IMG/VR virus record: IMGVR_UViG_3300009502_001749
Location: 1-64,000 of that record
Source of the DNA: a virus
DNA: 64,000 nt
Strand: one strand, 5' to 3'
Shown here: positions 32,436 to 62,691 of the stretch, in pieces
Layout: the number at the start of each line of letters is the position of its first letter
Position numbering within the stretch: position 1 is the stretch's first letter
Position numbers and translations under genes: made by a program
Notes under the pieces: generated by a model
The model's input: the letters and a program-made list of their open reading frames with translations, nothing else
What the model was told of the DNA's origin: nothing
Database searches by the model: none

Positions 32436-33037
32436 ATGGCAAGAAAAAAAGAAGATACAAATAAAAGTGCAAACAATAGTAGTTATGATTCTTCAAATTT
32501 TGAAAGTGCATCAACTAGTCAAGCTGAACTTTTGGGAACAGCATTTGAATCTATTATTACAACTAAATATGGATTTGCTAGAGCACCAGAACCTTATCTT
32601 ACTCCATTTGGAATTCAACATTTGGATGGTTTAATTGGTGGAGGAATAACTTCTTCAGCACCAGTTATGTTAACATCAACTCCAGAAACAGGTAAAAGTA
32701 CATTAGCTTTTCAGCTTTCAAAGATATTTCAAACATTATATCCAAATTCGATGGTTGTTTATTTGGATATTGAAACAGCAGCAAATAAATCTAATAAAAA
32801 TAATGCAATGTCTCGAGTTAATATATTTGAGATTGATGAAAAGAGATTCAGGTATGAACCTTTGGTTATTGATATAAACCAGTTGTTTGAGTTGATCGAA
32901 CAGTTGTGTCAAGTAAAACAAATGTTTGAACAAAAGTCACAGAAAGAGTTTAAAGTATTTATTATTTGGGATAGTATAGCGGCAACACCTTCTTCTAAAG
33001 TTGCTGACGCTGAAGATCCAAATAAAATAATTGGGGT
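32436..33037 (+). CDS. uvsX: RecA/UvsX-like recombinase, exon 1
   Basis: PFGIQHLDGLIGGG, TPETGKST, VYLDIE, IIWDSIAA; joins exon 2 as IIG-V-KARQL. Confidence 0.8.
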
Positions 33038-33353
33038 TAGCTCTAGGCTTTGGCTCCAATAAAATCTTGTGAATTGCTGGAACACCCTTAAAACTTTTCT
33101 ACTACAAAGTAATCTGAAAAGATAAACTTGAATGTTTAAAAAAGAAAAGATTGGGCAATCAGCAGCCGAGCTCCTAAAGAATCTGCTAAATTTTATGGAG
33201 AAGGTTCAACGACTAGTCGAAAGACGTAGAGTTTAAGTAAACTCGAAGCGCAAGACATTCAGAAATGAATGAAGATATAGTCTGATCTATATGGAAACAT
33301 ATAGCTGAATAAAATTCAGAAGAAGAATTAACGATTCTTCTTAAACACAAATG
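33038..33353 (+). ncRNA. Group I intron (ORF-less, 316 nt) in recA/uvsX
   Basis: GAATTGCTGGAA (P), AATCAGCAG (Q), TTCAACGACTA (R), AAGATATAGTCT (S); P1 TTGGGGT/GCTCCAA with U.G; P10 GCTTT/AAAGC; terminal G; splicing restores frame. Confidence 0.9.
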
Positions 33354-34158
33354 AAAAGCTCGCCAGTTAACATTTGCATTAGAAAAATATTTGCCAATGA
33401 TGGCTTTTAACAGAATCACATTTCTTGCTATTGATCAAGTTCGTGCAAATCTTCAGATTGATCCTTACGCTCAAAAAGAAAAGTCAGTCGGGATCTTTAA
33501 AGATTATCGCGCCGCTACATCAATATCAGCTCTCAATCATAGAGTTGCTCAATGGTTATTTTTATCCAGAAAAGCAGCTATAACACCAGATGATGGTTTG
33601 GGTATTAATGGTTGGCAGATGAATCTATATGTAGAGAAGAATAAAATTGCACCATCTCAAGAATCAATTACATGTGTTTTTGATAAAAGAAATGGTCTTC
33701 ATAAATTTTGGAGTGAGTATATTTTCCTTAGTGAAATGATGCCATCTGAAAAGAAATATTATAAAACTGAAGAAAAAATACCTTATCCATTATCAATTAT
33801 AAAATCTGGACCTCAGGTTCATCTTGAGTTTATAGATCCAACAACTGGAAATGTTACTTATTCATCAGATAATATGTATAAGAAAAATATGAACAAAGCA
33901 TATGATTCAGATGCTCAATTTAAAGCTGCTTTTGATTATGTTGTTAGTATGGCTGTTGAACTTAGAATTAAACAAGGTCTTTTTAGAGAGAATGAATCAA
34001 AAGTTAATTTAAGTTCTGAAGAGATTGAAGAATTTGAAACTGAAAGTCTTGTTGATGAAGATATAAATACACCTAAAATATCTGCCGCTGAACAAATTGT
34101 AGCAGAAATACCTTCAACTAATATTGAAACCGAAGCAACATATGAATCAATATTTTAA
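33354..34158 (+). CDS. uvsX: RecA/UvsX-like recombinase, exon 2 (spliced product 468 aa)
   Basis: KARQL..LAIDQVR..VEKNKIAP. Confidence 0.8.
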
Positions 34159-47665: not shown

Positions 47666-47699
47666 TATCGGCAAGATCTGAAATATGATCTTGCCGATA
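47666..47699. repeat. Conserved intergenic palindrome, copy 4
   Basis: TATCGGCAAGATC-TGAAATAT-GATCTTGCCGATA. Confidence 0.9.
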
Positions 47700-47724
47700 A
47701 AATTTGGAGGCGAAAAGAAAATTT

Positions 47725-48278
47725 ATGATACGGGCACCATTTGTTTTAACTAAATATGATGAAGAGTCACTGAATCTTCTTCAAGAAAGTAATGGGATAA
47801 GTATTGATGAAATTAAACAAAACGAATGGTTTAAATGTCGAGAAAATCCTTTTTATTTTATTTTGAACTATGTTTATCTACCAGAAGTTGGTGGAAAATT
47901 AAAATACACAAAAGAGTACTTACACCCAAAATTTAGAAGAATAATCAAATCAATATATAAAAATCATATGGCAATGTTGATGGCAAGTCGGCAGCTTGGG
48001 AAGAGCTCTATCGCTGCATGTCTTTTAGCATGGGCTTTAATCTTTTTTCCAAACAACAGAGTTGTCATTTTAAACTATCGAAAAATTGCCGCTCAAGAAA
48101 ACTTAAAGAAAATAAAGTTTATAATACAAAATTTACCAACATGGATGAAAATTCCTTATAGATCGAAAAGTGAAATTAAGGAATATGCTGAACTTCAAAA
48201 CGGTTCAAGAATAGATACATTTTATCCTTCTTCAACAAGTTCACCATCAACATTAGCTAGATCGCTTACAGTTCCGAT
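47725..48278 (+). CDS. terL: Terminase large subunit (T4 gp17-like), exon 1
   Basis: KCRENPFYFILNY, ASRQLGKS Walker A, ELQNGSRI. Confidence 0.9.
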
Positions 48279-49280
48279 TAACTTATAAAGTCGCTTTCAT
48301 CAGTAATGATGATCGAATAATCCGGTGAATTCAGGGAAACTCCTAGTAATAGGACAATCCTGAGCCAAGCTTTAAATCTTGCCGCTAACAAGATTTACTG
48401 AAGGTGCAACGACTATCCCGAAAGGGAGTACATTCAAGCGAGTGGAAGCGCCGGACAACCTTAAAAATGAAAAATAAAAAAGGAAATAAATATGGAAGAA
48501 AATGAATATAATAAAATGAATTATTCTCAAGATATTTTAAAAAGATTTTGGAGTAAGATAGAAATTCCAGTTGATTGGGAAACAAATGATCAATGTTGGA
48601 AATGGAAAGCTAGTACATGGAAAGGATATGGACAATTTTTATTATATGAAAATAAAAAAGTAAGAGCTCATAGATTTATATATGAATATTATTATGGTCC
48701 AATTTTAGATGATTTAATTATAAGACATAAATGTGATAATCCAAGTTGTTGTAATCCTAATCATTTAATAACTGGTACTCAAATAGATAATGTAAATGAT
48801 ATGATTGAAAGAAAAAGACAAAATAATGTTAAAGGTTCTGAAAATGGTAATTCAGTTTTAACAGAAGAACAAGTTATTGAAATTTTAGAAAATATTAAAA
48901 ATGGGTTATATTCAACTCAATTACAAATATCTGATGATTATTTTATTAGTAAATCTGTTATTAATAAAATTTTAAACGGATATTTGTGGAAATCTATTAC
49001 AGATAAATATAATCTTGATGAATTAAGAAAGATATTTACACATCCAAATTCACAATTAACAAAAGAAGAAGTTTTAGAAATTAGAAAATTATTTTTGGAT
49101 GGAAAAAATAATATTGAAATTGGTAAAGAATTTAATGTTTCACCTATCACAATTTCAAGAATAAGAACTGGAAAATTATATAAAAATTTTTAAGGTTGAT
49201 GAGATAGTCTAATCTACATAGTAATATGTAGCAGTCTAACAAGACGGGTAGAGAGTAGCGATCTCTATTGAATACAAATG
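48279..49280 (+). mobile_element. Group I intron (1002 nt) with HNH gene in P8, in terL
   Basis: GAATTCAGGGAA, AATCCTGAG, GCAACGACTA, GAGATAGTCT; P1 CGAT/GTCG; P10 TATAAA/TTTATA; splicing gives Walker B PILYVDEVAF. Confidence 0.92.
48492..49193 (+). CDS. Intron-encoded HNH homing endonuclease
   Basis: CWKW..GYG..AHR..HKCDNPSCCNPNHL..GT..DN; two C-terminal HTH-like repeats. Confidence 0.9.
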   Translation: MEENEYNKMNYSQDILKRFWSKIEIPVDWETNDQCWKWKASTWKGYGQFLLYENKKVRAHRFIYEYYYGPILDDLIIRHKCDNPSCCNPNHLITGTQIDNVNDMIERKRQNNVKGSENGNSVLTEEQVIEILENIKNGLYSTQLQISDDYFISKSVINKILNGYLWKSITDKYNLDELRKIFTHPNSQLTKEEVLEIRKLFLDGKNNIEIGKEFNVSPITISRIRTGKLYKNF

Positions 49281-50583
49281 TTTATATGTTGATGAAGTAG
49301 CATTTATTAGTCATATGGAAGAAATTTATGGGAGCGCACAACAAACACTTTCAAGTGCAAGAGACCAAGCTATAAAGAATGATTATCCTTACTTTATTTT
49401 AATGACTTCAACTCCAAATGGTGTTGAAGGTGATGGAAAATTCTTTTATGATTTTTGGACTAATGCAGTTGAATCAGATGATATTTTTGAAGAAGATCCA
49501 GAAAATGGAATGGAAGATTGGAAACCAGATATATCAGGTCTTCTTAATCAAGCAGATAGAAATAGTTTTATAAGAGTTAAATATCATTGGTCTGAAAATC
49601 CAGATAAAACTATGGCTTGGTATGAACAACAAAAGAAAGAACTTAACTTTGATCTTAGAAAAATAAACCAAGAATTAGATATTCTTTTTGTTGGTGGAAC
49701 AAATTGTATTTTTACTGATGAAGTTTTACAAAAATTAACTTATATACCCAGAACTAATTATATTGAACTTTCAAATCAAGTTCAATTTGATATGTATGGA
49801 GAAATTGATGAACAAGATTATCTTTTAGTTGGAGTTGATACAGCAAGTTCAATTAAAGGAGCTTTTAATGCTATAGAATTGTTTTCTTATAGAGATTTTA
49901 TCCAGTTAGGTGAAGCTAATATTCGTTTGGGTTCATTAACTAAATATGGTGAAACAGTTGATTCATTATTTAGAAATTTATATAAAACAACTAAGAGAAT
50001 ACTTCTTTGTATAGAAAATAACTCAATTGGTAAAGCTGTTATTGAACATTTAATTTATCATGTTAAAGATTTTAATTATATGCCTTTTATATATAAAGAA
50101 AAGAAATTGGATATGACAGATAAAGATGAATTTGGAATATCAACAACAGGTCAATCAAAAGAATTAATGGTTTCACTTTTTTATGATCATATTAATCAAA
50201 ATCCAGGATGTTTAAAGTCACAGAATTTGATTGCTCAGTTAGGTACAATACAAAGATCAAATCGTGGTACTGTTAAAGGTTCTGGTTATAGTGATATGTT
50301 TATGTCTGGTAGTTTTTGTGCATATGTTAGGAATAAAACTTATCTAGATATTTTGCCGCTATTAGGACAATCAAATAAACAAGTACAAGATACATTTTTT
50401 AACTCAGTAAAAACAGCTGCTGAAATGATGAATGTTAAATTAATTATTAAAAATTCAATTCAACAAGAAACAGGATATTTATCTATTGAAGAAGATAGAT
50501 ATAGAGATGAAGAAGCAAGACATGAACATGATACAATAATGGATGAAGATTGGAGAGTGTTTATACCTATTTTAACACCATAG
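49281..50583 (+). CDS. terL: Terminase large subunit, exon 2 (spliced product 618 aa)
   Basis: LYVDE, TSTPNG, GVDTA, IENNSIG, SDMFM. Confidence 0.9.
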
Positions 50584-50593
50584 GAGAAATAGA

Positions 50594-53500
50594 ATGCCTA
50601 ATTATGCAAATCCTCATTTAGGATTAAATGATAATTTATTAAAGATGCAATTAAAGGCACAAGCTGCCGCTAGAGATTCAGAACAACAAAAAGGTGCTTA
50701 TACGAGACAAGGATATAATGAAGGTGGAATGACTGCCGCTAATGAAATGATTTATCGGCAGTTTCAGAAAAATATTGGTAAAGTTCAGGGTAATAAAGCT
50801 TTTATGGCTGCTTCAATTGCTTTACCAATGGCAGTAGATTATTCAAAAGATATTAGTAAGTTGATTGGTAAAATAAGCGGAAAAGAATTATCAACAAATA
50901 TTGCAGAAACGATGGGTAAAATGGGAGCAATGTTTTATCTTATGCCATCAGCAATGAGTAAAGTTCTTCAATCTAAAAGGGATTCTTTTGAAAAGAATTT
51001 TTCAAGAGAACTTGGTAAAGTTGGAACTGCTTATAAAGTTCTTAATCTTTTGAATCTTATGAGATATCCAATGAGAACTTTACCAGCAGGTTTAGCAATG
51101 TTAGCTGGATTTTCTGGTAAAGGTGTAGGAATAAGACCAGAACAGATTATGGCTGGATTAGGTTTAGCAACTGGAGCTTATAAAGGTGCAAAAGCTGCTG
51201 CTGGATATGGTATTGGAGCTGCTGGTGGACTAGTTAATAAAGTAACTGGTGGAGCAGCTGGAAGAACAGTTGATGCTGTTACTGGAACACAACTTGGTGG
51301 AGCTTCTGCTGGATTAATAAAGAAAGTTTTTGGAGGAGTAGATTCAAAAATTTTATCAATACTTGGTTCACCAATGGGTCTTTCTTTAGCTCTTGCCGGT
51401 GCAACAGTAGGATTATCGATATTGAAATCTATTAAACTGTCAAGATTATTACCATCTAGAAAATCTCCAATGAATTTAGAAAGACAATATTCTGATAGTT
51501 TAGCTTTCGATTCTGTTTTAAATAATTTAACTTCAAGACTTGCTTCTGGTACAATAAAAACAGATCAAGGTATATTAGAATCTAATTTAATAATTGCTCA
51601 AGCATCAATACTTACTGAAAGACATACAAGTCTATTGAGATTAATGGCAGTTGAAACAGAATATAAGAGTCAAGAACGTGAAAAACAAGGTCGTTCATAT
51701 AGTATTGATGTACTTGGTCAAGATCCAGCTGGAATGATTTCACAAGGATTAAATGCAATAACAGGACGTTTACATCATACGATTGCAAAATATGATCCGA
51801 TAACACAAATGTTAAACTTCATATTTTCCGGTGGTAAATTAAGACCAATGGGAGAATTAGGAAGACTCGAAAAAACATATGGTATTGGGATGTATGGAAA
51901 AATTGTAAAAGGTCATGCTAGTAATTTTGGTTTAAGTATGTCAGATGCTAGATTAACAACTATAAATTCAGATGAAGTATTACGTATGGGAATAAGTCAT
52001 GAAGATAGAATGGAAAAATTAGGTCAATGGCAAGGAGATCTCTTAAAAGGAATATATACTGAAAATATAACTCTTCGTACTGGTTTTGGTTTTAAGAAAA
52101 ATGTTTTTACTATACCACATGAAAATTTAATGAAATTTCTCAGAGGAATAAATCCTCTTAACTTACCAGGTATTCATGCTATAAGTAGTTTAGTTCAAGC
52201 CCCATTTAGAGCTGTTAATGCAGTTAGTAGAGGTATTACAAATACAATTGGTTTACATCGTGGACCTGGTGGAATTCTTGGTGCAGTAAAAAATATGTTA
52301 AGACCAGGTGGACCAGATCAATTAGCATTAGGCGGTCCTGGTGGTCCTGCTTTACCAGTTAGAATAATGGGTAAAGGTGGTCCATTTAAGAAATTTTCCC
52401 CTTTCATTGCTGGAGATCAAGGTCCAGAATTGATTTTTCCTAAAAATGATGGAAGAGTTGCTCCACATCGGGAAGTTAGAAATAATCTCGCAAAAGCTTT
52501 ATTTTTAAGAAACAGAACTCTTTCTCAAGAACTTAATGAAGTTTCAGTTGGAAAAGAAAAAGCTGCAACAACTAAACATCAAGGTGATGTTAGTGAATTA
52601 GTAAAATACATGAAACAAGAGAGAACTGCAGGAGCTATTAAAGGTATTATTGGTGGAGCTGGTGGATTAGTTTATAGAGGTGCTGATAAAGCATTTTCTG
52701 CCGGTAAAGGTTTCTTATCATCTGGATTAGGTTTTATTGGTGATATTTTTAAAGGTTTATTAAATTTTGTTGTTCACAATCCTTTATTAACAATTGCAGG
52801 TGGTTTAATAACTTACATAGTTCCAACTTTAATTAAAAAATTAACAGATAAATTCAGTATCAATTGGGATGCTATTCAAGGTAAAATTGGCGACATGATG
52901 AAAGGAGCATTAGATCTATCAAATACTCCTATCGGCAAATATGCTTCTATTGGTTTTGCTATGGGTATTCCTTATGGTGTAACTCCAGGTATTATGGGAG
53001 CTATGGTTGGTGGTGGTCTTGGTGGATTTATTACATTAATGGCAAAAATTAAAGAGAAAGATCCTGATAACATCTGGAAGAAACTACTTGAAGGTGGAAT
53101 GTTAGAGAAAGTTGAACAAGGTGGTTTTGCTTTAGGCGGTGCATTATTAGGATTAAAATTAGGTACAATGGTAGGTGGACCAATTGGTGGTATCGCTGGA
53201 AGTTTACTTGGTGGTGGATTAGCTTGGTATCTCTCACTTTTAAAACAAGATAAAGTAAAACCTGGGTGGGAAGGATTTAAAGAAGTTGCAACTGCTATTT
53301 GGGAAACTGCAAAAATTAATCTTGAAGCTAATCCAATAATTGGTAGACTTGCTGGAATAGGTTTTCTAGCTGGTGTTCCTTTTGGCTTACCAGGTATGAT
53401 TGCTGGAAGTTTACTTGGTGGTGGTCTTGGAGTTTATTTATCATTTTTTAGAACACCTGAAGAAAAAGAGAAAGATGATATATGGAAAAAATTATCAAAT

Positions 53501-55279
53501 CCAAATTCTGAATTAGTAAAAGAAATTGGTGGTATAGCTGGTGGAGTTGCTGGTTTTTCTATTGGAGCTAGTTTTGGTCCAATTGGGGCTATTTTAGGTA
53601 CAACAATTGGTTATTATATTGGAAGTATGGGTCTTATTGGTCAAATGTTTGATAAAGAAAAAGGTGGAGTAAGTGGAGTTTTAGGAAGGGTTATTATACA
53701 ACTTGGTAAAGATGCGTTTAAATTATCAGGTGAACATCCAGTTTATTCTGCTATGGGTGGTGCTTTAGCAGGATTAACTGTAACATTACCATTATTAACA
53801 GTTAATCCAATGATACCTATATATGGTGCACTTACAGGTATGCTTATTGGGGTATTATTCAGTTCAATAAGTGAAATGGTTAGTTTATTTGATAAAGATA
53901 AAGATTGGAAAGATGTAATTTGGACAGTTACTAAATCTATGGCAAGAGGTGTATTTGGTTTACCTGCAACAATAGCTACAAGTGGTTTAGAACGTTATTT
54001 TAAAAATCCACCTAACACTTCTACAACATCAGAAACACCAAAAAGAACTGGTACTTCAGGAGAGTTCAATACTGATCCAATAAAAGAATTATCAGGTAGA
54101 ACACCTAATATAGTTGGACCAGGATCTGGTGGAAATTTAACAAAAGAAGAACAAGATGCAGTAATAAAAGATGCATCTTTAAAAACTGGAGTTCCAATAC
54201 CAATATTACAAGGATTGATTACAACAGAAAGTGGTGGATTAAATAAACAAAATATAGCAGGAAGTCGTGCTTATGGTCCTATGCAAATAATGCCAGGAAC
54301 ATTTGCAGCTCTTAGAGGTCCAGCTGCAAGTTATGGTATTGATCTTACAGCAGATGGTTTAAAAGATCCAGTTCAAAATATATATGCTGGAGCTGTGTTT
54401 GCTGCTAGAAATATAGAAAGATTTAAAAAAATGGGTATAACAGATCCCACAGCTACTGATATGTATATTTCACATTGGTTAGGTCCAGGAGATACACCAA
54501 AATTTTATAACGCATATAAAGAAAATCCAAATCAATTAACATCTAAAATATTACCTAATATAATTGATAAAAATGAACCATATTTTTATTTTGATGAAAA
54601 AAATAAAACTGGCTCTAAATATGATGATAGAAATAAAAAATATCCTATGTCATTACAACAAACTATGAATAAAATTTCTAGTTTAAAAGGTATTAAAACT
54701 GCAACATTAAATACTAATAGTGGTATAGGAACTTCAGATGTTACACCTGTCACAGGTGGATCCGTTGGTGGTTCATTGATGAGTCAAAATTCCCCAAATA
54801 ATTTAGTAGCAAAAGATGATATTGATCTTGAGAGAAAATTAGCTGTGTTAGGAGCATTATATGAAACTGATTATGCTAAAGCAAAAGATGAAATTGATAA
54901 AGTAAAATTAAAAGAAGAATATTTTACAAATGTTCAAAAATTAGTTAATTCTGTTCCTAAACAAACAACAAAATCTTTACCAGAAAAACTTGGAGGAGCA
55001 CTTTCAGCTTTTGGAAAACTTTTCTCTGGAGAAATGTCTCTTGATCAAGTTAAAGAATCATTATCAAAAGCATTTGCTCTTACAGCTGAAGTTGCAAAAG
55101 AAACAAAAGAAGCTGTCGCTTCAACTGCAAGTAATGTAACTAATAATTCTTCAAGTAGTTCTAATGTGTCACCAACAACACAACTTGGTGATACTTCATT
55201 TGAGTCAATGTGTAAAGAATTATTCAGCACAGTCATAAAAGAATTTAAAAATTCTTCAATACTTTATGCAGGTTTATAA
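50594..55279 (+). CDS. Tape-measure-like protein with C-terminal lytic transglycosylase (SLT) domain
   Basis: Gly/Ala-rich amphipathic repeats; LITTESGG..AYGPMQIMPGT..DPVQNIYAGA. Confidence 0.75.
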   Translation: MPNYANPHLGLNDNLLKMQLKAQAAARDSEQQKGAYTRQGYNEGGMTAANEMIYRQFQKNIGKVQGNKAFMAASIALPMAVDYSKDISKLIGKISGKELSTNIAETMGKMGAMFYLMPSAMSKVLQSKRDSFEKNFSRELGKVGTAYKVLNLLNLMRYPMRTLPAGLAMLAGFSGKGVGIRPEQIMAGLGLATGAYKGAKAAAGYGIGAAGGLVNKVTGGAAGRTVDAVTGTQLGGASAGLIKKVFGGVDSKILSILGSPMGLSLALAGATVGLSILKSIKLSRLLPSRKSPMNLERQYSDSLAFDSVLNNLTSRLASGTIKTDQGILESNLIIAQASILTERHTSLLRLMAVETEYKSQEREKQGRSYSIDVLGQDPAGMISQGLNAITGRLHHTIAKYDPITQMLNFIFSGGKLRPMGELGRLEKTYGIGMYGKIVKGHASNFGLSMSDARLTTINSDEVLRMGISHEDRMEKLGQWQGDLLKGIYTENITLRTGFGFKKNVFTIPHENLMKFLRGINPLNLPGIHAISSLVQAPFRAVNAVSRGITNTIGLHRGPGGILGAVKNMLRPGGPDQLALGGPGGPALPVRIMGKGGPFKKFSPFIAGDQGPELIFPKNDGRVAPHREVRNNLAKALFLRNRTLSQELNEVSVGKEKAATTKHQGDVSELVKYMKQERTAGAIKGIIGGAGGLVYRGADKAFSAGKGFLSSGLGFIGDIFKGLLNFVVHNPLLTIAGGLITYIVPTLIKKLTDKFSINWDAIQGKIGDMMKGALDLSNTPIGKYASIGFAMGIPYGVTPGIMGAMVGGGLGGFITLMAKIKEKDPDNIWKKLLEGGMLEKVEQGGFALGGALLGLKLGTMVGGPIGGIAGSLLGGGLAWYLSLLKQDKVKPGWEGFKEVATAIWETAKINLEANPIIGRLAGIGFLAGVPFGLPGMIAGSLLGGGLGVYLSFFRTPEEKEKDDIWKKLSNPNSELVKEIGGIAGGVAGFSIGASFGPIGAILGTTIGYYIGSMGLIGQMFDKEKGGVSGVLGRVIIQLGKDAFKLSGEHPVYSAMGGALAGLTVTLPLLTVNPMIPIYGALTGMLIGVLFSSISEMVSLFDKDKDWKDVIWTVTKSMARGVFGLPATIATSGLERYFKNPPNTSTTSETPKRTGTSGEFNTDPIKELSGRTPNIVGPGSGGNLTKEEQDAVIKDASLKTGVPIPILQGLITTESGGLNKQNIAGSRAYGPMQIMPGTFAALRGPAASYGIDLTADGLKDPVQNIYAGAVFAARNIERFKKMGITDPTATDMYISHWLGPGDTPKFYNAYKENPNQLTSKILPNIIDKNEPYFYFDEKNKTGSKYDDRNKKYPMSLQQTMNKISSLKGIKTATLNTNSGIGTSDVTPVTGGSVGGSLMSQNSPNNLVAKDDIDLERKLAVLGALYETDYAKAKDEIDKVKLKEEYFTNVQKLVNSVPKQTTKSLPEKLGGALSAFGKLFSGEMSLDQVKESLSKAFALTAEVAKETKEAVASTASNVTNNSSSSSNVSPTTQLGDTSFESMCKELFSTVIKEFKNSSILYAGL

Positions 55280-55283
55280 AACA

Positions 55284-55324
55284 AATTATCGGCAAGATCT
55301 TTAAATTAGATCTTGCCGATAATT
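55284..55324. repeat. Conserved intergenic palindrome, copy 5
   Basis: AATTATCGGCAAGATCT-TTAAATT-AGATCTTGCCGATAATT. Confidence 0.9.
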
Positions 55325-55345
55325 ATTAGTAGGAGGCGAAAAAAG

Positions 55346-57595
55346 ATGTCAATTGAAAAAATTGTAAATAAAATTTTACCAACTGCAGTTGCAGCAGCAG
55401 CTTTAACTAAAACTGTTACTAATCTATCTGATATGAAATTTATTAATAATGAATTTTTACCCGGAATATCTGCGGTAACTGGTTTAAAATTAGGTCCTAT
55501 TCCAAATTTAAGTGATTTAGCTAAAAATGCTATGGGTTCTGTATCAGATATGTTTGGTTCAGCTAAAGATGCAGTAGGAAATATGTTTGGATCATCCAAA
55601 TCTGATATAATAAAAGAAGATGCAATACATACTTTAGATGAAAGTGTTGGTATGGCTGCTTCTCCAGAAAGTATATGTTGCAATACAATTCCAGTAGATG
55701 AAGCTGTAAAAACAACAGGTGATAGTTTTGGTGGTAATTTTGCTGCTGCGGCAACAAAATCAACATTTTTAGATTCAAATCTTTTACCAGAATTACCTGA
55801 TAATTTAAAGACAATAGAACCTCAATCTTTTGGTGATCTTGGTAGTGATTATGATTCTGCTCCAGAAGGTTATAATCCTTCTTATGAAGGTGAATGGACA
55901 GAACCATCATTTGGTGAATTAGGTAGTGATTATGATTCTCCTTCTTGGGATGAAAATGCTTATGAAGCTCCTCCAGAAGGTTATAATCCTTCTTATGAAG
56001 GTGAATGGTATGAAGATGATTTTAGTATGTTAGGTAGTGATTATGAAGCTCCTCCTCCAGATTTTAGCGAACTTGGAAGTGATTATGAAACACCTCCTTG
56101 GGATGCAGATGCTTATGAAGCTAGTCCTAATTGTATAGGAAATAGTATAGATTCTGGTGAAGAATCAATAACAGACTTTGATTCTCCAAGTGGTGGCGGT
56201 TCAATGCCAACTGGTAGTAGTCTATATGTTATTGGTAAACCAGTAGGATTTAATGAATCTATAGATCCAGGTGGAAGACTTAGTAATTATATTAAATCAA
56301 AAATGAGTGTTATTGATCTTATTCCATGTGATTATAAATTAGATTTTACAAAAATGAAAGAACAAAGTATGGAAGGAGGTAATCCTGTTGGTGATGGACT
56401 TTACACAATAAAATATGATGAAAAAGTTAAAATATATCAAAGGCTCCAGAGACATTATGGATTAGATTCTGGAGATTCTGCAAAATCTGGAGTAAGATTA
56501 TATACAACGGACGATACAACTTCAGTTGATAATTTTAGCATTCAATATAAACCAAATATATTTCAAGGTCCAATTGATAAACTTGGTGATGCTACAAGAT
56601 CATTAGCTGATTTTATGAATTCTGTGGATAGTACTTGGCAAGCAACTGCTAATAAAAAAGTTTCAGAAGGTATTGATTGGTTAAAAACGAAAATGGGAAA
56701 TAATAATGCTACTAATGCAGCAGGAGCTTTTTTAGAAACTGCAATAACTTCTATTGTGAAAGGTAATAGAGTTTCATTTCCTAAAATTTGGCAGAATACA
56801 TCTTATAATAATACACTATCAACTGTTATTAAATTAGTATCTCCATATGGTCATCCTAAAGCTGTTTATGAGTTTATAATTAAACCATTAACATATTTAA
56901 TTTTATTAGCTTCTCCACAAACAATAGATGGTTTTACATATGGTGGTTCGATACCATTAACAATAAAAGCATATGGTATGAATCATACAACTTTAGGAAC
57001 AATTAGTAATATAACAGCTCGACGCGGTGGAAATGACACAAGTTTTAATGTTTATCGGCAACCTTTATCTATTGATGTTAGTATAACTTTTGAAACATTA
57101 TTTGACGGTTTTGCCGCTTACTTACCAAATGGAAGCGGACAAGGAATAGATGAAATGTTTTCAGCTAAAGATGGTACATTAACAGGTCAATCTGGTCCTG
57201 GAAATGAATTATATCAAAAGACACCAAGAACACCTTTAATGACTGTTGGAAAAGTGCTTGAATCATTAAAACCAATAAAAATTGTTGAAGGTAATTTTGA
57301 TACATATGGTTCTATGAATAGACCTTCAAGAATAAATGCTCCTGGTGCTGGTGGTTTAGGAGATCTTAATCGTTCTCTTGGAAATATTTCTTCTGGTGTA
57401 TCAACAGCAACAAATACAGTTGGAGATTTTTTAGGAATGTCTAATCTTTCAGAATTTACAACTGCAAAAAAATCAATCACAGGTGTTATAAATTCAGTAA
57501 CAGGTTGGGTTGGAGAGAGAACAAAAGATGTATCTGTAGGAGATGCAGCAAAAGAAAAAATATTTGGAAATATGGGAATTAACTTAAAAATGTGA
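55346..57595 (+). CDS. Putative baseplate/tail-hub protein with acidic repeat region
   Basis: AGGAGG before ATG 55346; FPKIWQNTSY..IKLVSPYG..RRGG..PLSIDVSITF tube-like domain; follows tape measure. Confidence 0.5.
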   Translation: MSIEKIVNKILPTAVAAAALTKTVTNLSDMKFINNEFLPGISAVTGLKLGPIPNLSDLAKNAMGSVSDMFGSAKDAVGNMFGSSKSDIIKEDAIHTLDESVGMAASPESICCNTIPVDEAVKTTGDSFGGNFAAAATKSTFLDSNLLPELPDNLKTIEPQSFGDLGSDYDSAPEGYNPSYEGEWTEPSFGELGSDYDSPSWDENAYEAPPEGYNPSYEGEWYEDDFSMLGSDYEAPPPDFSELGSDYETPPWDADAYEASPNCIGNSIDSGEESITDFDSPSGGGSMPTGSSLYVIGKPVGFNESIDPGGRLSNYIKSKMSVIDLIPCDYKLDFTKMKEQSMEGGNPVGDGLYTIKYDEKVKIYQRLQRHYGLDSGDSAKSGVRLYTTDDTTSVDNFSIQYKPNIFQGPIDKLGDATRSLADFMNSVDSTWQATANKKVSEGIDWLKTKMGNNNATNAAGAFLETAITSIVKGNRVSFPKIWQNTSYNNTLSTVIKLVSPYGHPKAVYEFIIKPLTYLILLASPQTIDGFTYGGSIPLTIKAYGMNHTTLGTISNITARRGGNDTSFNVYRQPLSIDVSITFETLFDGFAAYLPNGSGQGIDEMFSAKDGTLTGQSGPGNELYQKTPRTPLMTVGKVLESLKPIKIVEGNFDTYGSMNRPSRINAPGAGGLGDLNRSLGNISSGVSTATNTVGDFLGMSNLSEFTTAKKSITGVINSVTGWVGERTKDVSVGDAAKEKIFGNMGINLKM
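55820..56125 (+). repeat. Coding acidic repeats (LGSDY x4; PEGYNPSYEGEW x2)
   Basis: 38-bp exact direct repeat at 55860-55897 and 55971-56008. Confidence 0.8.
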
Positions 57596-57605
57596 GGATA
57601 AAAAG

Positions 57606-59459
57606 ATGAGTGTTTTTGCTAATAATTTTTCAAGTTATTTAAATTATACAGCTAATTATACAAATAGATTGACCAATTTAGAATCTATTTTTAAAGAAGC
57701 ATATGAAACAGTTAAAGATCCAAATTTTATTTCAGTTGATTTTTTAGATAAAATTGGTCAGTTTCCGAAATTTCCATATTTTATGAGTATCATGTCAAAA
57801 ACAAATTATTTAAAAATACCAAATATTTATAATGTTTCATTAGATAGACCTGAAAGTTTACTTACAACTATGTTAGAATCAAATATAACTTATTTGAAAT
57901 CAGATTATGATACAGTTCCTAATGAGATTGAAAATATTTTAAGACATGCAAATTTTCAATATACTTATCTAAGTACTGTTAATCAAATTTATGATGTGAA
58001 TAAAACTTGTAAAACAACTAATACAGAAACATCTTATCGTAATTTTTTTACAAATCTTTATTCACAGAAATATTTTAGTGTTGGTTATCCAGTTTCAGCT
58101 GGTTTTGAAAGTAGTTGTTCAATGAACGAACAAGCTTTAATATCATTATTTTCAAATAATTTATCAGCTTCATGTTCATTAACAACTAATTTATTAAAAT
58201 ATATTTTATATTTTAATGCTTTACAACCAGGTGATTTTGGATATTTTCTTGGGATTGAAGCTCAACAAATTAAAAGTGCAAATTTTCAACAAGCTTTTGA
58301 TTATTTTATTATAAATAATAAAGTTGATATGAGTGGAAATATTATAGATTTAATTTCTAAATCACTTTATAATTATAATAATTTATCTACTAGTTTAAAA
58401 AGTGAACTTACAGTTGTTGTTGAACCTCTCATATTAGGTTTATCACAATACTTTACAGATTATTTAAATTCATTTTCAAATTTTGAACCTAATTTTGATA
58501 TCACTTCAAATTTTATTGATTCTCTATATTATCTTTGTTCTGTTGATTTAACGTCTTTGTGTTTTAAAGATGCTACAATTATGGAACAGGCAAATTCAAA
58601 TATTTTGGCTATTGAAGAAGATGCAAAATTTACATTATATATGAATAAAATTGATTCCATGAATATTCAAGATTATCTCTTTCTTGTTTATCTTTATAAG
58701 TTCTGGCCGCTAAAATTTGTGAATGTTTTACAAATGGTTGTTAAAGAATATATTCAAAATATAATAAAAACAGTAGATATTGAAGATAATGCTTTTGATA
58801 TTTCAGAATTTACAGAATTCATGGGAAGACTTTACGCCGATACATATACACCTTTTGATCCATTACATCCTTTTGTAAACTCTAAAATAAATTATACTGC
58901 TCTTGATACTTTTATTCAATCAATATTTACATTAACTCCAGATAATTATCTTTGGAGAATGGAAAACACAAAAGAAGTTTCTAAATTTGCTTGTGAATTA
59001 TATTATATTCAATTGATAGATAATTTTATGGCAAGTGAATATTATATTGATTTTACAAAAGATTTATTGAAAACTATTTTTGAATATTTACGTGATAATG
59101 GACATGTTAGTTATTTATTTAATTGGTATAATAACCATGAAGTTGTTGATATCTTTATTAAAACATTTTTAAGATATCGAATTTTTAGTGAGGATAGTAA
59201 AGGACCAGGAACAAGATTATTTCATTCTATAACGGCAAATTTTAAAGCAATTTTTGATAGAGTTGTAACAAATACAACTGGCGAACCAGTATATGATATA
59301 TCTATTACTTACAAAACACCACAACAATTAAATGATCAATTTAAAAATTTAGTTGAAGGTGCAACAATTAATAGAATGTATCAATTTAATGAAAATTTAT
59401 ATTTATCAAGTTTGACATGTGAAAGTTTTTATGCAATACTTGGAAAATTCTTTTCATAA
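57606..59459 (+). CDS. Hypothetical (probably virion) protein
   Basis: 617-aa ORF. Confidence 0.55.
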   Translation: MSVFANNFSSYLNYTANYTNRLTNLESIFKEAYETVKDPNFISVDFLDKIGQFPKFPYFMSIMSKTNYLKIPNIYNVSLDRPESLLTTMLESNITYLKSDYDTVPNEIENILRHANFQYTYLSTVNQIYDVNKTCKTTNTETSYRNFFTNLYSQKYFSVGYPVSAGFESSCSMNEQALISLFSNNLSASCSLTTNLLKYILYFNALQPGDFGYFLGIEAQQIKSANFQQAFDYFIINNKVDMSGNIIDLISKSLYNYNNLSTSLKSELTVVVEPLILGLSQYFTDYLNSFSNFEPNFDITSNFIDSLYYLCSVDLTSLCFKDATIMEQANSNILAIEEDAKFTLYMNKIDSMNIQDYLFLVYLYKFWPLKFVNVLQMVVKEYIQNIIKTVDIEDNAFDISEFTEFMGRLYADTYTPFDPLHPFVNSKINYTALDTFIQSIFTLTPDNYLWRMENTKEVSKFACELYYIQLIDNFMASEYYIDFTKDLLKTIFEYLRDNGHVSYLFNWYNNHEVVDIFIKTFLRYRIFSEDSKGPGTRLFHSITANFKAIFDRVVTNTTGEPVYDISITYKTPQQLNDQFKNLVEGATINRMYQFNENLYLSSLTCESFYAILGKFFS

Positions 59460-59474
59460 AAATTCTATTTTTAT

Positions 59475-59482
59475 ATAGAAAT
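59475..59482 (+). promoter_or_regulatory. Putative phage promoter motif ATAGAAAT
   Basis: ATATAGAAAT upstream of the helicase unit. Confidence 0.4.
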
Positions 59483-59503
59483 AATTATTTTAAAGAGGTG
59501 TAT

Positions 59504-59737
59504 ATGATTTCAATTACAAATTTATTTGAAGAAATTTCAGCAGTAGATGATAGAATGAATTATGCTAGTGAAAGAATTGCTACATTACAAAGAGCTTTTA
59601 AAGCTGGAAGAATATCTGCAAAAATTTATCAACAACAATTAAAACAATTCCAACAAGTTAAACGTGGAGTTCCATCGAAAGAAATGCCTGAAAGTGAAAT
59701 TAAAGCAGCAGGCACATATTTAAATACTCAACAATAG
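59504..59737 (+). CDS. Small protein with MISITNLFE leader
   Basis: GAGG before ATG 59504. Confidence 0.6.
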   Translation: MISITNLFEEISAVDDRMNYASERIATLQRAFKAGRISAKIYQQQLKQFQQVKRGVPSKEMPESEIKAAGTYLNTQQ

Positions 59738-59751
59738 TAAAGAGGAGGCGT

Positions 59752-60648
59752 ATGGATTTTGCATCAAACAGTACAAAAAAAGTTGTATCAAATTCTTTAT
59801 TAAAAGCTTTCATATCAAGATATGTTGCAGAAGATTTTTTTACAAATATTGCAAGAATAATTCTTTATCCATCTGATTTTGGTAATTTTATTTCAGATAG
59901 AACAAATTCTGTAATTGATTATATGCAAGAATTTTTAAAGAGTTTATCAATTTTTTCTGGTAAATTACAACTGCAAAATACTAAAGTTGTTAGAAGTCAA
60001 ATTGCTATTTTAAGTTCTTTATTAACAATTAGAGAAACAAGTCCAATTTTATTAACTTATGATAATGTGAATCAACATTTAATGCCAGGACAAGATTTAA
60101 TTGTTACTAAACTTATTCAAAAATGTGTTGATGAAAGAATTACTGATCCTGATGAATTTAGAAAAATTACAGATGAAATTATCAGTACAATTTCTTCTTA
60201 TTATGAAATGATGTCAGCTTCAGATAGTATTACTATGGTTGGGAATCTTTATGATTTGATTAATGAAGGTAATCTTGTGCCGATGGAAACATTAAAAAGT
60301 TATAAAGATGTTATTAATGTTGCATATAACGATTTATCTAAATTACAATCTTTAAGTAAAGCTGAAACAGCTGCAGATTATTTTGTTATTTCAGATGATA
60401 AGTCTTGTGATGCATTATCAAAAACATTAGTTAATTATGTGTCAAAAGGTTTTTCAGTATTTAAAACTGGTTTTGATTTATTTGATAAATATATTAATGG
60501 AATTGAAAGTTCCAGCGTACATTTGATAGGGGCTCCGAGCAACCACGCTAAGAGTTTGTTTACGATTAATCTCTCATATAGAATGATAAAAAATAATCTT
60601 GCCGATTTCGATAAACAAGATTGTATATTATTTGTAACATTAGAAGAT
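59752..60648 (+). CDS. dnaB: DnaB-like replicative helicase, exon 1
   Basis: KTGFDLFDKYING, GAPSNHAKS (variant Walker A), LFVTLE. Confidence 0.8.
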
Positions 60649-61632
60649 TTAGTTAATAACTAACTTTGTCTCTTTTACTGGTGACAGTAATTGAAAAAAT
60701 CCGGTGAATTCAGGGAACATCCTAGTAATAGGACAATCCTGAGCCAAGCTTTAAATCTTGCCGCTAACAAGATTTATTGAAGGTGCAACGACTATCCCGA
60801 AAGGGAGTACACTCAAGCGAGTGGAAGCGCCGGACATCTTGAGAAATTTAATATTATGGAGTTATTAAAATGTTTAATGAAATGAATTACCCAGAAAAAT
60901 ATATTATAAGATTTTGGGACAAAGTAAATGTTCCAAAAGATTGGGCTGAAAAAGATCAATGTTGGAAATGGAATGGACTTTTATTTATAAAAACTAATTA
61001 TGGAAGTTTTTCTTTTAATGGTAAAAATCTTAAAGCTCACAGATTCTCATATGAAATTCATTATGGTCCAATTCCTGAAGGATTAGATGTTATGCACAAA
61101 TGTGATAATCGAAAATGTGTAAATCCAAATCATTTAAAAGTTGGTTCCAGAAAAGAAAATATGGAAGATTGTGTTGAAAAAGGAAGATCAAAATTTGGTT
61201 CTAAAAATAATATGTCTAAGTTAACAGAAAATAATATTATAGATATTATTAATAAAAGTTTAAATGGAACATATACAAATAGAAATCAAGTTATTAATGA
61301 TTATAAAATATCATTATCAGAACTTTCAAATATTCTTTGTGGAAAAAGATGGACACATATAACTTCTAATTTTACACAACAAGAAATTGAAAAAGTAAAA
61401 TATTTATTAGGATGTAGGTTATCAATAGAAGATATTGCTGATATAAAAATGAGATTAGATAAAGGTGAATCACAAAGTTCAATAGCTAGAAGTTATAATA
61501 TATCTCAACCGGTAATATCAAATATGATAAAATTTATAAAACTCAAGATGATGAGATAGTCTAATCTTATAGGTAACTATAAGCAGTCTAATAAGACGGG
61601 TAGGGAGTAGCGATCTCTATTGAATAAAAATG
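60649..61632 (+). mobile_element. Group I intron (984 nt) with HNH gene in P8, in dnaB
   Basis: Core nearly identical to the terL intron; P1 AGAT/GTCT; terminal G 61632; splicing gives TLED-DIYKLIRRF. Confidence 0.9.
60870..61559 (+). CDS. Intron-encoded HNH homing endonuclease
   Basis: CWKW..YG..AHR..HKCDNRKCVNPNHL..G...EN; HTH-like C-terminus. Confidence 0.9.
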   Translation: MFNEMNYPEKYIIRFWDKVNVPKDWAEKDQCWKWNGLLFIKTNYGSFSFNGKNLKAHRFSYEIHYGPIPEGLDVMHKCDNRKCVNPNHLKVGSRKENMEDCVEKGRSKFGSKNNMSKLTENNIIDIINKSLNGTYTNRNQVINDYKISLSELSNILCGKRWTHITSNFTQQEIEKVKYLLGCRLSIEDIADIKMRLDKGESQSSIARSYNISQPVISNMIKFIKLKMMR

Positions 61633-62613
61633 GATATTTACAAATTAATTCGTAGGTTCGCGTCAATATATGGAAATTATAAATTTGAATCTTTAAAAAG
61701 ATTATTTTCAAAATCATATGAAATGACAAGAGCAACACAAATAATGGACATGTCAACTGAAGCAAGTTCAAGATTGTATAATAATTTAGACGGGATGTTT
61801 AAAAATGTTTTAAAAACAAGTATTGCTAAAGTAACACAAGGTAAAGTTAATATAGCAATTAAACATTGTTCAGAGAATTCGTTTTCTCCTGGTGATTTAG
61901 GAAGATTTATAGATCGTTTGAATATTGAAGGTTATAAGATTAAGATGGTCTTTGTAGATTACTTAGATGTTATGTCTGCGACAATTAACAGATTTGGTGG
62001 AGCAGGGAAAGAATATGATATACTCGGTCAGATCACACAAGAACTTCGTAACTTAGCTCGTATACATAAAGTACCAATAATAAGTCCTACACAGAATAGA
62101 AGAGAGTCAGAGAATGTAAGCACAAAACTAAGTAATGAACAAACTGGTGATTCATATAAAAAAATCAGATATTCGGATTTTATATATTCATGTAGATTAA
62201 GACCAGATTTAGATTTTCTATCTGAAGGAGTTAGACATCATGTGATTCCAACAAAAGTAAGTCCAGATGGAACAATTGCAGATTTTATTTCTCCAGAACT
62301 TATAAAACTTAAAGAAAGCTTATTTAGAGTATTAGTACCTTTTGAAGTTAAAATTACAAAGTCAAAAGATTCAGAAAAAGATTCAACAAAATTTTTCTTA
62401 TTTTGTAAAGAAAATTTGAGAATGTATAATAATGTAGATGAATATATTAAAGATGCTCCTGTTCTTGTTGCTAATAGTGAAAAGTTAGAGAAAGATATTG
62501 CTATATTAACTGAATTAGCTATTACAAGTGTTTCAAGTGGAATTAATGAATTTTTTGATAATGATCAGAGTGATATTGAATTTGGTGATATTCCAAATGT
62601 TGTTTTTGGATAA
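61633..62613 (+). CDS. dnaB: DnaB-like replicative helicase, exon 2 (spliced product 625 aa)
   Basis: VFVDYLD, ELRNLA....VPIISPTQNRR, GDSYKK..SD, ITKSK. Confidence 0.85.
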   Translation, partial: DIYKLIRRFASIYGNYKFESLKRLFSKSYEMTRATQIMDMSTEASSRLYNNLDGMFKNVLKTSIAKVTQGKVNIAIKHCSENSFSPGDLGRFIDRLNIEGYKIKMVFVDYLDVMSATINRFGGAGKEYDILGQITQELRNLARIHKVPIISPTQNRRESENVSTKLSNEQTGDSYKKIRYSDFIYSCRLRPDLDFLSEGVRHHVIPTKVSPDGTIADFISPELIKLKESLFRVLVPFEVKITKSKDSEKDSTKFFLFCKENLRMYNNVDEYIKDAPVLVANSEKLEKDIAILTELAITSVSSGINEFFDNDQSDIEFGDIPNVVFG

Positions 62614-62658: not shown

Positions 62659-62691
62659 ATCGGCAAGATTTAGAAATAAGATCTTGCCGAT
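62659..62691. repeat. Conserved intergenic palindrome, copy 6
   Basis: ATCGGCAAGAT-TTAGAAATAAG-ATCTTGCCGAT. Confidence 0.9.

Follow-up and report, generated by a model that had tools for sequence, protein, structure and literature searches.

Two group I introns that interrupt the terminase large subunit gene (terL) and a DnaB-like helicase gene (dnaB) of one virus carry nearly the same ribozyme core within otherwise different surroundings, and recent, patchy gene conversion between introns residing together in this genome is the probable explanation. The introns, here labelled I1 (in terL) and I2 (in dnaB), lie in the window, i.e., the first 64 kb of the 87.8-kb IMG/VR virus record IMGVR_UViG_3300009502_001749, which was judged 31% complete. 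The runs containing this DNA are lake and freshwater metagenomes, and the source is an uncultured freshwater jumbo phage. Coordinates count within the window unless they are called genome coordinates, which count within the 87.8-kb record. I3, I4 and I5 denote further introns of the same genome, R1 and R2 introns of its relative G001, a virus contig of 285.6 kb (95% complete) and the sole close relative in the collections. Searches with terL exon 2, dnaB exon 2 and the I1 endonuclease HNH1, each used singly, returned G001 as the only related genome plus distant HNH relatives, and a single metagenome scan added no new relatives beyond G001.

The shared block was delimited by a repeat search, in which 48316-48490 matched 60695-60869. 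In the pairwise alignment of the core proper (48320-48457 in I1, 60699-60836 in I2), 134 of 138 nucleotides are identical (97.1%), and the four differences fall at 48340/41, 48398 and 48433. The I1 block comprises P3, P4, P5, P6, P6a, the 5′ strand of P7, P7.1, P7.2 and P3′; every stem cell in it pairs, and compensatory differences from I2 amount to zero. Other members of the family are 74-88% identical overall. To the core of I3, I1 or I2 show 86-88% identity, to that of R2 79-82%, and to that of R1 76-79%. The flanking exons of this phage and G001 are mostly about 80-95% identical in windows of 60 nt. Among 68 IMG/VR loci with the 32-nt P7-P7.1 signature, none was nearer to I1 than I2 and I3 are, the maximum being 87% (partial). 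The full core reached at most 77% identity in the phage collection, no core more than 89% identical was found in IMG/VR, the JGI metagenomes or the phage collection, and an exact 24-mer from P4′-P6a had no match in IMG/VR.

The likeness resumes at the 3′ ends of the two introns, where 70 of 83 positions are identical, or 46 of 49 when P9 is left aside; the J8/7-P7′ segment of I1 is identical to that of I2. P9 reads CTACATA-GTAA-TATGTAG in I1 and CTTATAG-GTAA-CTATAAG in I2, with five of the seven pairs changed on both sides. When only pairs variable within the family are counted, compensatory differences between I1 and I2 affect 9 of 11 pairs of P2 and P9 vs 0 of 26 pairs of P3, P4, P5, P6a, P7.2, P9.1 and P9.2 (Fisher p = 4.4e-7), and uniform divergence of the two introns is excluded because of this distribution. 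The P8 stems, 12 bp in I1 and 8 bp in I2, are unrelated in sequence. The nearest relatives also change from module to module: the guide and P2 of I1 have their closest counterparts in I5 and R2, its P9 resembles the P9 elements of I3 and of introns outside this genome (L035 and L033, 90%), and the P9 of I2 resembles those of R1 and R2. I3, which has the next-closest core, bears an unrelated endonuclease type that it shares with R1, R2 and I5. High-identity blocks are bounded by unrelated sequence and adjoining blocks have different nearest relatives, i.e., the pattern is a mosaic of the T4 kind.

Next to the 97% identical cores, the endonucleases encoded in I1 and I2 are 38% identical over 218 aa. 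Both open reading frames (ORFs) are intact and of full length, HNH1 (48492-49193) with 233 aa and HNH2 (60870-61559) with 229 aa. HNH1 contains an HNH_3 domain (Pfam PF13392, curated cut-off 24.8 bits; 43.4 bits) and a C-terminal helix-turn-helix (HTH; HTH_38, 27.6 at a cut-off of 27), and matches phrog_59 at 2e-33. HNH2 scores 52.3 bits on PF13392, stays under the cut-off for HTH_38, and matches phrog_1872 at 4e-32. The HNH motif H-x-C-D-N ... N-P-x-H-L is intact in both. In a tree with database homologs, HNH1 grouped with its nearest database protein, P0002 (67% identity; support 100/100), and HNH2 grouped with P0006-P0008 (support 91/90), so the two enzymes are not sisters. Exact HNH1 is present in 22 contigs; P0002 stems from a contig of 1155 bp. 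A phmmer search of HNH1 against all PDB chains gave no match at E <= 0.01 and thus no sequence link to an I-HmuI-type chain, which, as a sequence comparison only, leaves room for a distant relation.

Much of this anatomy had been read correctly in a preliminary description of the window. The four differences in 138 nt that it counted between 48320-48457 and 60699-60836 were recovered by the pairwise alignment, the 3′ ends align with a compensatory P9 as it had said, its view of the HNH ORFs as related but clearly diverged agrees with their identity values, and the two elements it took for group I introns in a terminase and a helicase gene are recognized as such by RF00028 (58.2 and 73.1 bits), phrog_5989 and phrog_19. 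It also described guides and P8 stems that differ and match their own exons. The guides, one base apart, do pair with their own 5′ exons, and the P8 stems do differ; the partner strands of P8, however, lie on the two sides of the ORF, and the exons take no part in the pairing. The picture of a "twin" pair had to be given up, as the genome fragment contains a family of at least five introns.

The fold of both introns was examined with covariance models and a structural alignment. I1 and I2 exceed the gathering score of RF00028 (50 bits), and their 3′ halves score separately (26.2 bits in I1, 21.8 bits in I2) because the ORF of about 700 nt splits the match. An Rfam scan of the whole window at the gathering threshold and with default filters detected I4 alone; I1 and I2 were detected by local scans. 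The structural alignment had five members (I1, I2, I3, R1 and R2), on which P2, P3, P4, P5, P6, P6a, P7.1, P7.2, P9, P9.1 and P9.2 were imposed. Of the stem cells belonging to these 60 pairs in 11 helices, 100% and 98.8% pair, and compensatory change was found in 20 of 44 and 13 of 16 pairs, 33 of 60 in total. None of 500 shuffles matched the observed pairing and covariation, and slid controls paired at 29-48%. P7 is invariant in this alignment. P8 forms a perfect helix of 8-12 bp with a different sequence around each ORF, and it was perfect in all six introns checked.

Between P7 and P3′, I1 and I2 contain P7.1 (UCCC-GAAA-GGGA) and a 5-bp P7.2 hairpin, the latter covarying at three of its five pairs. 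Judged by P7.1 and P7.2, both introns appear IA2-like and would be placed with the T4 td-like (IA2) phage introns. A P2 with a GUAA loop goes with CC:GG as the third and fourth pairs of P8 in every such member, and I2 alone combines GUGA with CU:AG. This association suggests that P2 and P8 may be fitted to each other, a reading for which we drew on GNRA tetraloop-receptor rules that were reportedly set out by Costa and Michel. Both introns show the group I hallmarks, with the U at the end of the 5′ exon paired to a G of the guide and a G at the end of the intron. From these features, I1 and I2 look like working group I introns and are predicted to splice.

All features of the terL locus lie on the plus strand. 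Exon 1 (47704-48278; Pfam Terminase_6N; phrog_5989 terminase large subunit, 6e-27) contains Walker A (QLGKSS), and reading on from it meets an in-frame stop 8 nt inside the intron. I1 itself (48279-49280, 1002 nt) is a group I intron with P7.1/P7.2 and the HNH gene within P8; one T at its border can be assigned to either side, and the G.U pair at U48278 together with the terminal G49280 favours 48279-49280. The internal guide (48284-48293) consists of a P10 part, UAUAAA (48284-48289), which pairs with UUUAUA of the 3′ exon (6 bp), and a P1 part, GUCG (48290-48293), which pairs with CGAU of the 5′ exon (4 bp, including U48278.G48290). The P2 hairpin (48297-48312; 6 bp, GUAA loop) has four of six pairs changed on both sides relative to I2 and resembles the P2 of I3, I5 and R2. 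Behind the core, the P8 strands 48457-48468 and 49186-49197 flank the HNH1 gene, followed by the 3′ part (49197-49280), which in the alignment to I2 divides into J8/7-P7′ (49197-49214), P9 (49215-49232), and P9.1-P9.2 with the terminal G (49233-49280). Exon 2 (49281-50583) starts within Walker B (LYVDE) and is 86% identical at the amino acid level to the intronless terL of G001. That gene is contiguous across the I1 site and reads LTVPILYVDEVAF, i.e., PILYVDE over the predicted junction, as the preliminary description had expected. Removal of I1 thereby restores the host gene in the form of an existing intronless allele.

The dnaB locus, likewise on the plus strand, begins with exon 1 (59752-60648), which has FVTLED, taken to be the H1a motif, as its last residues and places residues 236-298 on positions 334-390 of the phrog_19 profile. 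I2 (60649-61632, 984 nt) has the architecture of I1. Its guide GUCU (60668-60671) pairs with AGAU at the exon end (P1 of 4 bp, including U60648.G60668; P10 of about 2 bp), its P2 (60675-60690) carries a GUGA loop, and it ends in G61632. The P8 strands are located at 60836-60843 and 61542-61549, and the final codons of the HNH2 gene overlap the 3′ strand of P8 and J8/7. Exon 2 (61633-62613; Pfam DnaB_C, 5e-9; phrog_19 positions 410-584) is 89% identical to G001 at the amino acid level. Here the host gene is restored by reading frame and exon order: the frame is kept over TLED/DIY and both exons are collinear on the phrog_19 profile, which supports the junction TLEDDIY named earlier. No intronless dnaB allele was found, the dnaB of G001 being itself intron-bearing.

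That G001 intron, R1 (L009:2827-4000), sits at the same codon as I2. Its core is 78.6% identical to that of I2, its endonuclease is of the unrelated second type, it has no P2, and its P1 and P10, both read as 6-bp pairings, are stronger than those of I2. The dnaB site has therefore hosted different introns in the two related phages.

The guides follow the exons throughout the family. The P1 guides GUCG (I1), GUCU (I2), GUCC (I3) and GUCGC (I5) pair with the exon ends CGAU, AGAU, GGAU and GCGAU, so that one guide base covaries with the exon, and it is by this single base that the P1 guides of I1 and I2 differ. The P1 guide GUCGC is common to I1 and I5, and only the adjoining P10 part differs (UAUAAA with UUUAUA in I1, UUAAAG with CUUUAA in I5), each suiting its own 3′ exon. 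A newly evolved guide in I1 is not supported by this.

We envisage the following course of events. Each intron would fold in its pre-mRNA, with the guide pairing its own exon (GUCG with CGAU in terL, GUCU with AGAU in dnaB), and splicing would restore Walker B of terL (PI/LYVDE) and the helicase motif read as H1a (TLED/DIY). Intronless alleles in co-infecting relatives are presumably the targets of the HNH enzymes, whose cuts would lead to homing. Recent non-reciprocal recombination within one genome would have copied blocks of the core (P3 to P3′, and P9.1-P9.2) from one intron to the other, leaving in place the site-specific guide, P2 and P8, P9 and the endonuclease gene, each with its own history. 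The window also encodes a UvsX-like recombinase, which we counted in favour of recombination.

Other histories could produce two similar cores, and we weighed them against the same data. An assembly artefact, in which a short-read metagenome contig would hold a repeat that was collapsed or chimeric, had been named from the outset as a threat to the interpretation. Logan contigs do end within both of the identical stretches (48370/48403 and 60749/60801), and short k-mers cannot phase a repeat. Nevertheless, contigs of two studies (2017 and 2020) link the flanks of each intron to its own distinguishing bases with zero mismatch, depth is about twofold in the core bins, as a true repeat predicts, and gene order and spacing match G001, with the exons of each gene flanking their own intron. 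Moreover, a collapse cannot make two different sequences alike, and we regard an artefact as hardly credible. Among the contigs matched to the window, no DNA form without either intron was seen, which is uninformative on polymorphism because contigs drop rare variants. Very improbable, too, is a recent ectopic transposition, in which a whole intron with its ORF would have jumped from dnaB to terL, or in the reverse direction, by reverse splicing or off-target HNH cutting, and diverged later. Such a jump would agree with the 97% identity of the core, with two sites that both end in NGAU and guides one base apart, and with ORFs of the same HNH_3 plus HTH type at the same P8 position; also, terL is intronless in G001, so that I1 may be a recent gain. 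It is contradicted by HNH enzymes that share 38% identity and form no sister pair, each having several database proteins at least as close to it, by unrelated P8 stems, by changes at 9 of 11 variable pairs of P2/P9 against 0 of 26 others, and by a guide and P2 of I1 that resemble those of I5 and R2, not those of I2. Because of the HNH tree and the unrelated P8, a recent jump of the whole intron is largely ruled out. The preliminary description had offered transposition or conversion with exchange of modules as alternatives: gene conversion with modular exchange stands (core 97.1%, modules with different relatives), whereas transposition of an entire intron does not (HNHs not sisters; P2, P8 and P9 unrelated).

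It is also quite unlikely that I1 and I2 are old paralogs without exchange, which would have split early and kept their core under strong ribozyme selection while P2, P8, P9 and the ORF drifted. The elements that differ are indeed peripheral (P2, P8, P9), and a 52-nt stretch from P7 through P7.1 and P7.2 to P3′ shows 85-98% conservation among introns from phages that infect very different hosts. Yet the family changes freely, by compensation, in P3, P4, P6a, P7.2, P9.1 and P9.2, exactly where I1 equals I2; loop and joining bases are identical in the two as well, and the intron at the same dnaB site of a phage with about 87% identical exons has a core that is just 78.6% identical. An independent arrival of both introns, or of both cores, from a common outside donor among lake phages is unlikely. 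Replacement from outside does occur, as related phages hold different introns at the same dnaB site; I1-type P9 elements exist in unrelated IMG/VR contigs, and one lake run (X2) contains an ORF-less family member at lower depth. On the other hand, contigs with a core above 89% identity were absent from the three collections searched, and the three closest known cores (I1, I2 and I3) are found together in one genome, within a span of 17 kb. A further idea, to which we give a slim chance, is that the core is a cassette sweeping through resident introns with the help of the octamer TCTTGCCG as a recombination hot spot or a binding site for a phage factor. This octamer occurs at 29 sites in the window vs 0.18 expected, mainly on the plus strand, and at 102 sites in G001. 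It lies within the P6a hairpin of I1 (48377-48384) and I2 (60756-60763); I3 shows TCTTGCTG in this place, and the P6a of the G001 introns is unrelated. The octamer also occurs within intergenic palindromes, e.g., at 47669-47696, 55290-55318 and 62661-62689.

Several observations weigh against gene conversion between the resident introns as the explanation, or limit what it can say. No resolution was obtained from maximum-likelihood trees of the cores (140-190 nt), which gave long-branch warnings and did not support I1 and I2 as sisters; the claim of a shared core therefore rests on pairwise identities. Separate trees for cores and HNHs had been proposed earlier, and of these the HNH tree did separate HNH1 (with P0002) from HNH2 (with P0006-P0008). 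Sliding identity against G001 showed no co-conversion tract in the flanking exons. As to the direction of transfer, an I2-like backbone in which three patches were replaced is just as parsimonious as a native I1 in which two or three patches of the core were converted. G001 is the single related genome for comparison, and R1, with its different endonuclease type, may not be truly orthologous to I2, which makes the argument from rates indirect. Finally, P1 comprises only 4 bp in I1 and I2, and I2 is nearly without P10.

In one low-depth contig of a third study (run X6), position 60777 of I2, one of the four distinguishing positions, bears the I1 base C. A strain variant, one more conversion event or misplacement of the contig could account for this.

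Exchange between phage introns has precedents. Hall, Liu and Shub reportedly described in 1989 (Nature 340:574) that the group I introns in td, nrdB and sunY of phage T4 recombine with one another, and domain shuffling between T4 introns is said to have been described by Bryk and Belfort in 1990. As in T4, one phage has several introns of the same type in different essential genes, with core blocks separated by unrelated ORFs, a recombination system of the UvsX type and exchange between non-allelic introns. However, the T4 events were recovered in the laboratory, T4 cores are much less alike, and the enzymes involved are the T4 intron enzymes; in our case the exchange is inferred from natural sequence with a 97% core and HNH enzymes. 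Intron-intron recombination in phages is, by these accounts, known since 1989, and intron-rich jumbo phages are documented. The locus described here adds a further example of a process already known, its elements are not of a new kind, and the accepted picture is unchanged.

Similar introns within one virus have also been found elsewhere. Staphylococcus phage Twort (Landthaler and Shub 1999, as described in PMC3073962) has three similar introns in one gene, and these lack the contrast between a shared core and diverged endonucleases seen here. For Bodo saltans virus, "parental" and "offspring" group I introns were reported in polr2a/polr2b (Deeg et al. 2018, PMC5871332), and they resemble our case in that related ribozymes with homing endonucleases spread to new sites in essential genes, with a proposed role in virus competition. 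That virus, in contrast, is a eukaryotic giant virus with offspring introns in the same or the partner gene, and a near-identical core next to distinct endonucleases is not reported in the text consulted. Intron-rich jumbo phages include the Jug phages, with about 18.5 group I introns per genome and a split terL (PMC12880540), and PhiPA3, whose gp210 is an intron endonuclease that can serve interference competition (PMC11620839). As here, group I introns and HNH genes are numerous in these jumbo phages and occupy essential genes, terL among them; the texts consulted do not describe an exchange of core modules, and the hosts and habitat (gut, Pseudomonas) are different.

Group I introns can also spread ectopically by reverse splicing or relaxed endonuclease specificity, as summarized in a review (PMC3984707) and seen in an rDNA case (PMC1299323). 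Our introns share with such cases the presence of related introns at different sites and short guides (4-6 nt) fitting each site. They differ in that the evidence here points to an exchange of patches at the DNA level between resident introns, not to a fresh RNA-mediated insertion. How group I introns arrive at new sites, and how ribozyme, guide and endonuclease are assembled, is called an open question in the same review (PMC3984707). To this question the locus contributes an unusually clean natural record: five related introns, a 97% core next to endonucleases 38% identical, a single-base guide difference that matches the exons, and a sister phage with an empty terL site and a different dnaB intron. 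It also offers material for experiments, namely two related HNH enzymes with different predicted targets and one core serving two sets of guides.

The remaining members of the intron family are distributed along the record, so that at least five introns (I4, I1, I2, I3 and I5) are present in this 87.8-kb genome fragment. I4 (window 32985-33354, plus strand, 3′ border approximate) has no ORF and interrupts the gene for the UvsX-like recombinase (RF00028 93.2 bits; exon 1 matches phrog_97, UvsX-like recombinase, at 1.5e-20). It is a more distant member of the set and shares a 145-nt block, the P4-P5 extension, with I5 at 88% identity. I3 (genome 65299-66708) lies directly past the window in a gene for an unknown protein of about 700 aa; its core (65333-65470) is 88% identical to that of I1, and its endonuclease, with CxxC fingers and a classical HNH, is frameshifted near 65920-65950. 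Both the host gene of I3 and terL are uninterrupted in G001. I5 (genome 69460-70777; L087:5460-6777) interrupts a gene with a weak major-head-protein match, has a P2 similar to that of I1 and carries an endonuclease of the second type. R2 resides in a G001 gene with the motif GADHDGDQ, read as RNA polymerase beta′-like.

The second, unrelated endonuclease type of I3, I5, R1 and R2 is phrog_1035-like. Ahead of its ORF, a conserved stretch of about 55 nt, starting with GGAGGACAG and ending with CTTACTCC, was observed in I3 (L006:1690-1760) and R1 (L009:3010-3075); it is possibly a structured or regulatory leader. In lake run X2, a joint of 60826 to 49200 revealed the ORF-less family member, made up of the core, a short P8 hairpin of about 30 nt and the 3′ part, at a depth below that of the phage. 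It may belong to an unsampled part of the genome or to a related phage. Directly downstream of terL, the window contains an ORF of 1561 aa (50594-55279) with repeated Gly-rich units of the G-x-G-G-L-V type.

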